From contig CAZSDQ010000003.1 of NCBI GenBank assembly GCA_964605725.1, positions 1-46,264 of the forward strand: 46,264 nt of DNA, written 5' to 3'. This stretch comes from an uncultured Candidatus Saccharibacteria bacterium (GTDB taxonomy: Bacteria; Patescibacteriota; WWE3; UBA101185; UBA10185). The position numbers and the translations under genes were made by a program. Numbering within the stretch: the first letter of the stretch is position 1; each line of letters starts with the position of its first letter. Positions 29,001 through 30,402 of this stretch are shown one piece after another. Under the pieces are notes generated by a model. That model worked only from the letters and a program-made list of their open reading frames with translations. It was not told the DNA's origin and did no database searches.

Positions 29001-29543
29001 TTATTTTACAAACCTGAAGTTTTGAAGAGGGTAGTAAACTAAAACGACTCTTCCAACAATATTTTCCTTTTTAACGTATCCCCACTCTCTGGAATCGTTG
29101 CTTTCCTCTCTATTGTCACCCATTACAACATACGAATCTTTAGGTATTTTATATTCGGGTCCTTCCTCTAATATTCTTTTACCTTCTGTGACAGTGCCGT
29201 CTTCCAAGTAGGTTTCGGACAATTCATCTCCGTTAATATATACTTTTCCATCCTGAATTTTTATATTCTCTCCAGGTAATCCAATAATTCTTTTTATTAA
29301 AAGCCTGTTGTTTTCATTTATATTTTTAAAAATTATAACGTCTCCTCGCTCTGTATTATTAATATTTATGGAGATTTTTTCAGCTATCAACTGTTCTTTG
29401 TCTCGAAAGTTTGGAATCATAGAATCTCCGACAACCTCAAAAAGCTGCCCAACAAAAAAGTAGATAATCGCAAAGACTATTAGGAATATAAAAATAATCT
29501 GAAAATATTCCACTATTACTTTTTTAACGTTTTTATCAAACAT
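29001..29543 (-). CDS. lepB: Signal peptidase I
   Basis: TM anchor, GDSMIPN (Ser), IKRIIGLPG (Lys), GDNREESNDSR. Confidence 0.95.
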   Translation of the reverse strand: MFDKNVKKVIVEYFQIIFIFLIVFAIIYFFVGQLFEVVGDSMIPNFRDKEQLIAEKISININNTERGDVIIFKNINENNRLLIKRIIGLPGENIKIQDGKVYINGDELSETYLEDGTVTEGKRILEEGPEYKIPKDSYVVMGDNREESNDSREWGYVKKENIVGRVVLVYYPLQNFRFVK

Positions 29544-29613
29544 AATTATCTAATCGTATTCCAGATGGGTAAAAAGTACAAGGTGTAGTAAAATGTTAGA
29601 TAGATAATATCGT

Positions 29614-29690
29614 GGGCTCGTAGCTCAGTCGGTTAGAGCGTTGCATTCACATTGCAAAGGTCTCAGGTTCGAATCCTGACGGGCCCACCA
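29614..29690 (+). tRNA. tRNA-Val(CAC)
   Basis: GGGCTCG/CGGGCCC acceptor, GCTC/GAGC D stem, TTGCA/TGCAA stem with loop TT-CAC-AT, TCAGG-TTCGAAT-CCTGA T arm, A73 and encoded CCA. Confidence 0.96.
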
Positions 29691-29925
29691 ATTAACGATT
29701 TGAGCTAAAGAAAGGATTCGAATGCCGCAACCGCGACGGCGGTGAGGCGGGGTCGACTGGCGCATCAGCAGATGCGAACAGGTGACCGAATCCTGACGGG
29801 CCCACCAATTAACGATTTGAGCTAAAGAAAGGATTCGAATGCCGCAACCGCGACGGCGGTGAGGCGGGGTCGACTGGCGCATCAGCAGATGCGAACAGGT
29901 GACCGAATCCTGACGGGCCCACCAA
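29671..29925 (+). repeat. Tandem 117-bp repeat (about 2.2 copies): last 20 nt of tRNA-Val plus a 97-nt GC-rich structured spacer
   Basis: GAATCCTGACGGGCCCACCA at 29671, 29788 and 29905; the two 97-nt spacers are identical. Confidence 0.95.
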
Positions 29926-29949
29926 GAAATTAAGGAATATAATATTATT

Positions 29950-30402
29950 ATGATTTATATAAAATATTTTATATTTTGTTTATTGGTAGCGATACTGCTT
30001 GCCTTGTTTGAAATACAAACCGAAGGAAAGCACGGGTGGGCAAAAAAATTACCAACATGGAAAAAAAGCTTCAAGTTTTTAGACGCGCTCCCCGGCTTCC
30101 GTGGTCCTATTACAGGTTATCATATATATCTTTTCACAATGATTCTATTTCTGGTTCACATACCGTTTTTATTTATGAGGTGGGACTTAAGAACCGAGGT
30201 AATAATTTTGTCTGGTTACACTTTAATAGCGATGCTGGAAGATTTTTTGTGGTTTGTTTTTAACCCACATTTCGGATTAGAAAAGTTCAAAGAAAAACAC
30301 ATCTCTTGGCACGAGGATTGGATTGGACCAATGCCTGTGCAGTATATTTACGTTTTTGTAATTTGGGTAACCTTGTTTGTGCTTGGTTTTTTTATTATTT
30401 AA
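29950..30402 (+). CDS. Hypothetical polytopic membrane protein
   Basis: 150 aa with about four hydrophobic segments and polar islands EIQTEGKHGWA and EDFLWFVFNP. Confidence 0.7.
   Translation: MIYIKYFIFCLLVAILLALFEIQTEGKHGWAKKLPTWKKSFKFLDALPGFRGPITGYHIYLFTMILFLVHIPFLFMRWDLRTEVIILSGYTLIAMLEDFLWFVFNPHFGLEKFKEKHISWHEDWIGPMPVQYIYVFVIWVTLFVLGFFII

Follow-up and report, generated by a model that had tools for sequence, protein, structure and literature searches.

Within the tRNA and rRNA operons of Escherichia coli, 22 tRNA-linked repeats (TLRs) are found at ten loci with one to five units per locus, each ending in 18-19 nt that are identical to the 3′ end of the upstream tRNA or rRNA (PMC8144298). 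They include the RtT RNA of tyrT-tyrV (Egan & Landy 1978; Rudd 1999; both as cited in PMC8144298) and are without known function, except for rrA, rrB and rrF, which bind Hfq and CsrA (PMC8144298). Here we describe an element of similar layout that directly follows a tRNA-Val gene in 46,264 nt of contig CAZSDQ010000003.1 from an uncultured Candidatus Saccharibacteria bacterium (assembly GCA_964605725.1), a stretch referred to as the window throughout. An earlier sequence-only reading of the window had noticed this element and proposed either a non-autonomous tRNA-targeting element or a source of CCA-ended structured RNAs, without recognising the E. coli repeats, which by their architecture are the closest precedent. 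Comparative sequence analysis identifies the repeated unit as a conserved, previously undescribed structured-RNA family of the Candidate Phyla Radiation (CPR, Patescibacteria). We consider it probable, by analogy, that the unit is a TLR-like small RNA which is co-transcribed with the tRNA and matured via its tRNA-like tail, and a functional analogue of the TLR/RtT RNAs of E. coli.

The tRNA-Val(CAC) gene, which has its CCA encoded, occupies positions 29614-29690 (ARAGORN; Rfam RF00005, 72.6 bits) of the forward strand, as do all parts of the repeats. It is followed by a 22-nt AT-rich linker (29691-29712, 27% GC, delimited by reading the sequence and little conserved across lineages), a 74-nt GC-rich core and the segment CGAATCCTGACGGGCCCACCA, after which the same 117 nt are repeated. 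This last segment is an exact 21-nt copy of the tRNA from C56 in the T loop to A76 (source 29670-29690) and forms, by sequence comparison, tail 1 at 29787-29807; the three-way-junction core of unit 1, as defined by its fold, extends into it (29713-29794). The second round consists of an identical linker (29808-29829), the core of unit 2 (29830-29911), which is 100% identical to that of unit 1 and was delimited by Tandem Repeats Finder and by our covariance model R1, and tail 2 (29904-29924), which again copies the last 21 nt of the tRNA exactly. Tandem Repeats Finder reports a period of 117, 2.2 copies and 100% matches at 29670-29925 (score 512), which agrees with the 117-bp repeat claimed earlier. 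That claim had divided the repeat into a 97-nt spacer and a 20-nt tRNA copy; the repeats are identical, as stated, but the real split is 96 unique and 21 copied nucleotides. The GC content given for the 82-nt core, about 63%, was correct (63.4% at 29713-29794 vs 34.2% for the window). A 37-nt probe from the core matches at 29714 and 29831 only in the window and not once in 100 shuffles, and ARAGORN calls neither a tRNA nor a tmRNA within the units. An open reading frame (ORF) of 150 aa begins at 29950, 25 nt past tail 2.

The minimum free energy (MFE) fold of the unit is a three-way junction of -47.1 kcal/mol (z = -3.84; none of 200 shuffles was as stable), just as the sequence-only reading had drawn it. 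In unit 1, whose core is delimited by this fold, RNAalifold, covariation and the model R1 (108.4 bits), the closing helix P1 joins 29713-29719 to 29788-29794, P2 is built from 29725-29728 with 29747-29750 and 29730-29734 with 29739-29743 (loop GACG, bulge GAG), and P3 from 29751-29754 with 29784-29787, 29757-29759 with 29779-29781 and 29761-29766 with 29771-29776 (loop AGCA). The first 7-8 nt of tail 1 lie within P3 and P1 and its last 13 nt (GACGGGCCCACCA) are mostly unpaired in the predicted fold; across the family, the remaining 13-14 nt of the tail, comprising the 3′ strand of the acceptor, N73 and CCA, are left free. In P1, then, the 5′ side is an "anti-T" strand and the 3′ side comes from the T-loop/T-stem portion of the tail. 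The perfect 10-nt complementarity pointed out earlier exists (AGGATTCGAA is the reverse complement of TTCGAATCCT), with six of its ten positions contributed by the palindrome TTCGAA. P1 varies, though, with the T stem of the host tRNA: it reads AGGAUUCG/CGAAUCCU behind tRNA-Val, GAGAUUCG/CGAAUCUC behind tRNA-Ala(GGC), where the segment GGA/UCC has become GAG/CUC, and GCGGAU/AUCCGC behind tRNA-Ala(CGC). Since it co-varies with the tRNA, the helix is under selection and no mere by-product of the palindrome.

Covariation was assessed in a MAFFT alignment of 15 distinct units and in a model-based alignment of 17. In the former, 93.3% of the cells in the three-helix structure are paired, against 80.6% in shuffled alignments (0/500 shuffles reach the observed value), 13 pairs have changes on both sides, and the covariation score of 0.384 compares with 0.153 after shuffling and falls to 0.07 or less when the partners are slid by one to three columns. 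In the latter, 15 of the 29 pairs are compensatory. RNAalifold independently recovered arms 2 and 3. True units score 91-111 bits with R1, whereas 89 chance matches in genomes and seven false metagenome loci do not exceed 26 bits. The G-U pairs, including the invariant G47-U75, form only when the tRNA-sense strand folds. The unpaired positions are nearly invariant, namely the junction GAAUG, the bulges A and GAG and the loops GACG/GAAG and AGCA/AGUA, which suggests tertiary contacts or a protein partner. Two further structures were considered and set aside. An acceptor-like stem between linker and free tail amounts to weak pairing in the window (UG.AGC with GGG.CC) and to nothing consistent in other lineages. 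In the MFE structure of the window's precursor the 5′ strand of the tRNA pairs with the distal tail, an alternative fold that we discarded because it rests on a palindrome, GGGCCC, peculiar to this tRNA-Val.

Members of the family were sought by degenerate-pattern scans (of one genome per species and of JGI metagenomes) and with R1, and contigs of relatives were fetched via homologues of the downstream 150-aa protein. The genome scan returned four true matches, in the window's species, its sister, a "Patescibacteria group" metagenome-assembled genome and a complete WWE3 genome, against the 89 chance matches, which fell in GC-rich genomes; the JGI scan brought in further lineages. Altogether, pattern scans and R1 recovered 17 distinct units from at least eight Patescibacteria/CPR and unassigned lineages. 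Their host tRNAs are seven isoacceptors, Val(CAC), Ser(CGA), Ser(GCU), Ser(GGA), Ala(GGC), Ala(CGC) and Tyr(GUA), and one 18.9-kb contig carries elements behind three tRNAs. All 17 lie on the tRNA strand, 22-57 nt past a tRNA or a preceding unit, with linkers of 22-57 nt and unit sizes of 117-153 nt, and no copy away from a tRNA exists among the window and the loci searched with R1. The sequence-only reading had asked whether copies always follow tRNA 3′ ends, and those recovered do; the homologs beside other tRNAs and the stem covariation, whose absence it would have counted against its proposal, are both present. The suffix common to a unit and its upstream tRNA is exactly 21 nt in 10/17 cases and never longer, and the others show one to three mismatches.

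The element behind tRNA-Val is kept at the orthologous position in two sister species, L154 (flanking protein 91% identical) and L021 (78%), and in both arm 3 is rewritten through compensatory changes with the AGCA loop retained. The L021 tRNA differs at two positions in the 3′ strand of its acceptor stem, and the tail carries both changes. In one close relative (L037) the core has suffered an internal deletion and the tail is missing, in another (L031) a decayed trace is found past an inserted gene, and the element is absent behind the tRNA in three more distant relatives (L027, L030, L156). Two contigs, L136 and L137, contain arrays of two units each that differ by single-nucleotide polymorphisms; these sit behind tRNA-Ser(CGA) and tRNA-Ser(GGA), and tail variants are swapped between the two loci. 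A diverged member directly behind tRNA-Ala(CGC) in L136 scores 36 bits with R1 and has an exact 21-nt tail. On a separate contig (L135, MTKZ01013300.1), which has an N run, tRNA-Ser(CGA) is linked, via one unit with a tRNA-Ser(GGA)-type tail, to the flank that comes after the tRNA-Ser(GGA) array in L136 (L136:6359-6860); the two arrays have recombined there, or else the assembly is a chimera.

The likeness to the E. coli TLRs holds for every architectural criterion that could be applied. Like them, the CPR units stand immediately 3′ of a tRNA, within its operon and in its orientation, and end in a copy of the upstream tRNA 3′ end (21 nt vs 18-19 nt) which starts inside the T loop, at C56 in CPR and two nucleotides later, at A58, in tyrT. 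In both systems a 5′ segment pairs with the T-arm portion of the copied tail to make the closing helix, two hairpins branch off in a GC-rich interior, and an NCCA tail remains free. The RtT model matches four units in the K-12 tyrT-tyrV locus at 133-137 bits, and in the RtT consensus it is the outer stem GGGGAAGGAU/AUCCUUCCCC that uses the copied T-arm segment, accompanied by two internal hairpins and the free tail CACCACCA. Units also occur in tandem and at several tRNA loci per genome in both, as in the 18.9-kb CPR contig with three tRNAs, and are of similar size (117-153 nt vs 178 bp in tyrT). In its position, its copied 3′ end and its numbers of units and loci the CPR family therefore has the architecture of a TLR. 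It differs in its phylum and in its internal fold, a three-way junction of compact build whose GACG and AGCA loops are conserved; pairing within the tail covers C56-C62/U63 in CPR vs A59-C68 in RtT, so that the free tail is longer in CPR. Expression and processing have been demonstrated for some E. coli TLRs and are predicted for the CPR family.

No similarity in sequence or by covariance model is detectable in either direction: the CPR units fall outside RF00391 by covariance-model score (RtT, gathering score 45 bits, has no match even at E <= 10 in 29400-30100 of the window and in L136 700-1100), and R1 does not match the E. coli RtT locus. The analogy is therefore architectural only, and homology was rejected, the GGAUGAGAA shared with the variant at L136:891 being too short to carry it. 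This variant, behind tRNA-Ala(CGC) at L136:891-905, starts with GCGGAUGAGAAU and the 5′ stem of E. coli RtT (L153) with GGGGAAGGAUGAGAA; the shared motif sits at the anti-T strand and may be due to chance or to a common function. In searches against Rfam 15 (4227 models) only tRNA reaches the threshold, and at E <= 10 no known family appears either, a 19-bit match to tmRNA_permuted being the T arm of the tRNA plus CCA. Hammerhead-type junction motifs (CUGAUGA/GAAA) are absent both by eye and by Rfam. Tandem interspaced guide RNA (TIGR) arrays carry variable spacers, and this kind of array was set aside on its general make-up, the CPR units being without such spacers.

Among the E. coli RNAs, rrA, rrB and rrF, which are TLRs behind 5S rRNA (PMC8144298), share with the CPR units that a small RNA is transcribed within a stable-RNA operon and that its 3′ terminus is defined by a repeated copy of that of the upstream RNA. 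They lie between a leaky hairpin and a final terminator, to be compared with a linker hairpin in the CPR lineages with tRNA-Ala(GGC) and in WWE3, and a strong terminator after the tail in the former. Unlike the CPR units, they copy the 3′ end of 5S rRNA and bind Hfq and CsrA via GGA motifs; no such motifs or partners are known for the CPR units, and CPR genomes may lack Hfq and CsrA. The small RNAs from 3′ external transcribed spacers (3′ETS, e.g., 3′ETS-leuZ; PMC8144298) are likewise functional RNAs freed from the 3′ trailer of a tRNA precursor by tRNA processing, but they are without a copy of the tRNA 3′ end, do not occur in tandem and act as base-pairing sponges.

We propose that the tRNA promoter would drive transcription of the unit within the precursor, that the 5′ end of the unit would be made by cutting at the 3′ end of the upstream tRNA or upstream unit and that its 3′ end would be matured at CCA by the tRNA 3′-end machinery, which is suggested because the tail carries the same terminal sequence. 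A discrete RNA of some 117 nt with CCA at its 3′ end would result. The tails, being repeated, would provide short homologies for unequal recombination or slippage by which arrays grow and shrink, and this could account for two units in the window, one in other strains and two or three diverged units in other lineages, and also homogenise the tails with the adjacent tRNA. As to the cellular role, the RNA could be a regulator, a decoy for factors that bind tRNA ends or a largely selfish hitch-hiker. This reading corresponds to the second option raised earlier, that of CCA-ended structured RNAs arising from the tRNA, and it fits the folding of the sense strand, the covariation, the constant place in tRNA transcription units and, in one lineage, a terminator behind the tail. 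In the window, no terminator motif is found between the tRNA and the units nor after the units, and no U-tract follows the core. In L148 a unit is located between tRNA-Tyr and tRNA-Thr within a cluster of four tRNAs, and in the tRNA-Ala(GGC) lineage (L141) a strong intrinsic terminator stands after the tail and not after the tRNA. A separate feature of two loci is that the linker forms a long hairpin followed by a U-rich run (L104:269-307 in WWE3 and L141:5201-5240 behind tRNA-Ala(GGC)); in L141 it is weaker than the terminator after the tail. By analogy, the linker hairpin of these two lineages may be a leaky terminator, recalling the T1-sRNA-T2 layout of the E. coli rrn TLRs.

Several points weigh against this interpretation. 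Transcription, processing and function of the unit are what we infer, and its ends are predicted; a single-stranded 3′ tail of 13-14 nt should be an entry point for 3′ exonucleases unless protected, and homology with RtT is, as said, undetectable. The element is also dispensable, being truncated or decayed in two close relatives and absent from three more distant ones. The near-identical units at two tRNA-Ser loci and the occurrence behind seven tRNAs have the look of mobility, and RNA processing by itself leaves both this apparent mobility and the match of the tail to a newly colonised tRNA unexplained.

These last points are the strength of the view that we are dealing with a non-autonomous mobile DNA element, MITE-like (miniature inverted-repeat transposable element) or a mini integrative element, which uses tRNA T loops as insertion sites and depends on mobilisation in trans, with the folded core as its recombination site and the 21-nt tail as a duplicated or restored target. 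The stem GGATTCG/CGAATCC would then recreate the duplex T-loop target, as in the single-strand substrates integron attC and CTX attP. An element of this kind accounts better than an RNA for the presence behind seven tRNAs with a tail always matching the local one and for the patchy distribution among close relatives with decayed copies. The nearly identical Ser(CGA) and Ser(GGA) units with exchanged tail types, the different single-gene insertions at the site 3′ of tRNA-Val in related species and the several public contigs that break exactly in the T arm also speak for it. However, the neighbourhoods, for which precomputed Pfam hits were used at the window's locus and a Pfam scan in six other lineages, contain no integrase, transposase, HUH/Y1 or GIY-YIG gene beside the element, so that the co-occurrence with such genes, which the sequence-only reading wanted checked, is not seen there. 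Its REP/MITE-like proposal (REP, repetitive extragenic palindrome) has the seven tRNAs and the patchy spread in its favour but lacks the companion gene in the species examined. Two pattern scans of IMG/VR gave no match, by which we rejected a phage or viral origin, and neither a viral or plasmid form nor an unlinked copy is present in the data and loci searched. The "target duplication" is always the 21-nt tRNA end, a fixed length that is atypical for transposons, and the 46-kb window holds only two copies, both at the tRNA, which again differs from MITE/REP elements. From attC sites the unit is set apart by the lack of R″/R′ core sites (RYYYAAC ... GTTRRRY) and of an integrase nearby. Moreover, the 5′ strand of P1 has co-evolved with each tRNA, which requires selection on the fold after arrival, by whatever route, and the restriction of good folding to the tRNA-sense strand (G-U pairs) agrees with a transcript no less well than with a single strand of DNA. 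We therefore regard mobility as the primary nature of the element as unlikely; the two interpretations are nevertheless compatible and not mutually exclusive.

Direct repeats that copy a tRNA 3′ end from within the T loop onward are the classic hallmark of integrases that target tRNAs, and such repeats, together with the variable cargo genes at the same tRNA-Val in relatives, would also be expected of a scar, i.e., the attL/attR of a phage or island whose interior was lost, as in cis-mobilizable elements (CIMEs), with the 96 nt as leftover DNA. tRNA-site phages, islands and CIMEs indeed resemble our locus in an insert between such repeats and in its variability between strains. Yet here the insert is 96 nt, structured, covarying and tandem and has the same core behind seven tRNAs; this interior is conserved over WWE3, other Patescibacteria and unassigned lineages with 15 compensatory pairs, and neither an integrase remnant nor a viral match was found in the searches described above. 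A scar thus seems very improbable to us, its plain attL/attR form being essentially excluded by the covariation. Even less credence is due to a cis-regulatory leader or terminator of the downstream gene, or to a protein-coding repeat. The start of the 150-aa ORF only 25 nt after tail 2 and a minus-strand ORF across the repeats could be quoted in their favour, but the downstream genes are wholly different between lineages, often on the opposite strand or replaced by another tRNA, no U-tract follows the core, the substitutions are compensatory in stems and not codon-patterned, and the antisense ORF needs the two-unit state that is absent from other strains.

[quoted passage not shown] A free acceptor-strand-NCCA tail on a rigid junction would engage the readers of tRNA 3′ ends as a decoy, guide or sensor for that tRNA species, with the CCA-adding enzyme, 3′ exonucleases, RNase P (as a natural external guide sequence) and toxins that target tRNA ends as candidate partners. 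If true, this would also explain the E. coli TLRs.

The number of units at the tRNA-Val locus needs separate consideration. Contigs of the same organism were gathered by exact-protein look-ups of two flanking genes, to which pattern scans added three, and in all 19 other distinct public contigs the tRNA is followed by a single unit and then by the downstream gene (intergenic distance of 289 bp vs 406 bp in the window). Two of them, JGI Ga0116248_10001628 and ERZ795063 NODE_7173, have flanks 100.000% identical to the window over ~6.4 kb and differ only by the missing 117 bp. Three of the single-unit contigs are MEGAHIT k141 assemblies, in which the collapse of a two-unit locus is unlikely because a 141-mer exceeds the 117-bp period. 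Unit 2 in the window, then, is a copy-number variant of very recent origin or else an assembly artefact. That the repeat loop was walked twice during assembly and the true locus has one unit, so that 29808-29924 would be spurious, is quite conceivable, if somewhat less likely than not: none of the 19 contigs, including the two with identical flanks, shows two units, and the 100% identity of both units is what an artefact predicts, but a very recent duplication would be 100% identical too. Diverged tandem arrays in L136 and L137 and the one to five TLRs per locus in E. coli (PMC8144298) indicate, furthermore, that a changing unit number is a genuine trait of such loci. Of the "tandem amplification" claimed by the sequence-only reading, the two units in the window stand, whereas the other contigs do not share them; the single copy in other data, which it had named as an argument against its proposal, affects the duplication and not the element. 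More generally, where loci of this kind differ in the number of 117-bp units, the cause can be a true polymorphism or an error of assembly, and caution is advised.

The genes next to the elements of the different lineages are unrelated housekeeping genes (MGMT-like DNA-binding, GH57, YARHG, NTP-transferase, Obg, TPR, PEMT, L21/L27, signal peptidase and GH18). At the window's locus, an 85-aa minus-strand ORF (29625-29882) runs antisense across the tRNA and both units; it depends on the GC-rich duplicated sequence and would be shortened in single-unit strains. The E. coli tyrT repeats likewise hold an annotated "protamine-like" ORF, tpr, inside rttR. In related species, the interval between tRNA-Val and the 150/152-aa gene is a hot spot of single-gene insertions, all on the opposite strand (L021:1845-2351, L031:1855-2394, L030:1934-2362 and L025:116-1837). 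The inserted genes encode proteins of 168 aa (with a weak match to Methyltransf_32), 179 aa (an ANT(2'')-like nucleotidyltransferase, PF10706) and 142 aa, and one of 573 aa without a Pfam match. The 573-aa gene insertion in L025 is bounded by a direct duplication of ~70 bp (L025:31-115 and L025:2040-2125), which takes in the promoter-proximal region of the 152-aa gene along with its first ~20 codons and whose truncated copy adjoins the tRNA. Three independent short-read contigs start at the same base of the tRNA-Val T arm (L025:1, L032:1 and L037:1; TCTCAGGTTCGAATCC...), and assembly graphs seem to branch there since the sequence past the tRNA varies between co-occurring strains or repeats. 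Between the 168-aa and 152-aa genes of L021, a genome of 33% GC, lies a perfect 14-bp GC hairpin (L021:2385-2430; GTGCCCCGCCCCGC-GTAA-GCGGGGCGGGGCAC).

Knowledge of the E. coli TLRs goes back to 1978, and they have passed for a peculiarity of enterobacteria. With the family described here, the same design recurs with unrelated sequence in the reduced genomes of Patescibacteria, which argues that the architecture itself is selected or is the product of a general mechanism. The CPR family also offers what the E. coli family lacks, i.e., many diverged copies, clear covariation and tails from seven tRNAs, and it therefore makes it testable whether the identity of the tail is selected, whether P1 is required and whether the conserved loops are recognised by a protein. 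A phylum in which few non-coding RNAs are known gains with it a well-supported class of structured RNA, and the family generalises an old unexplained phenomenon and supplies comparative data for RNA biologists.

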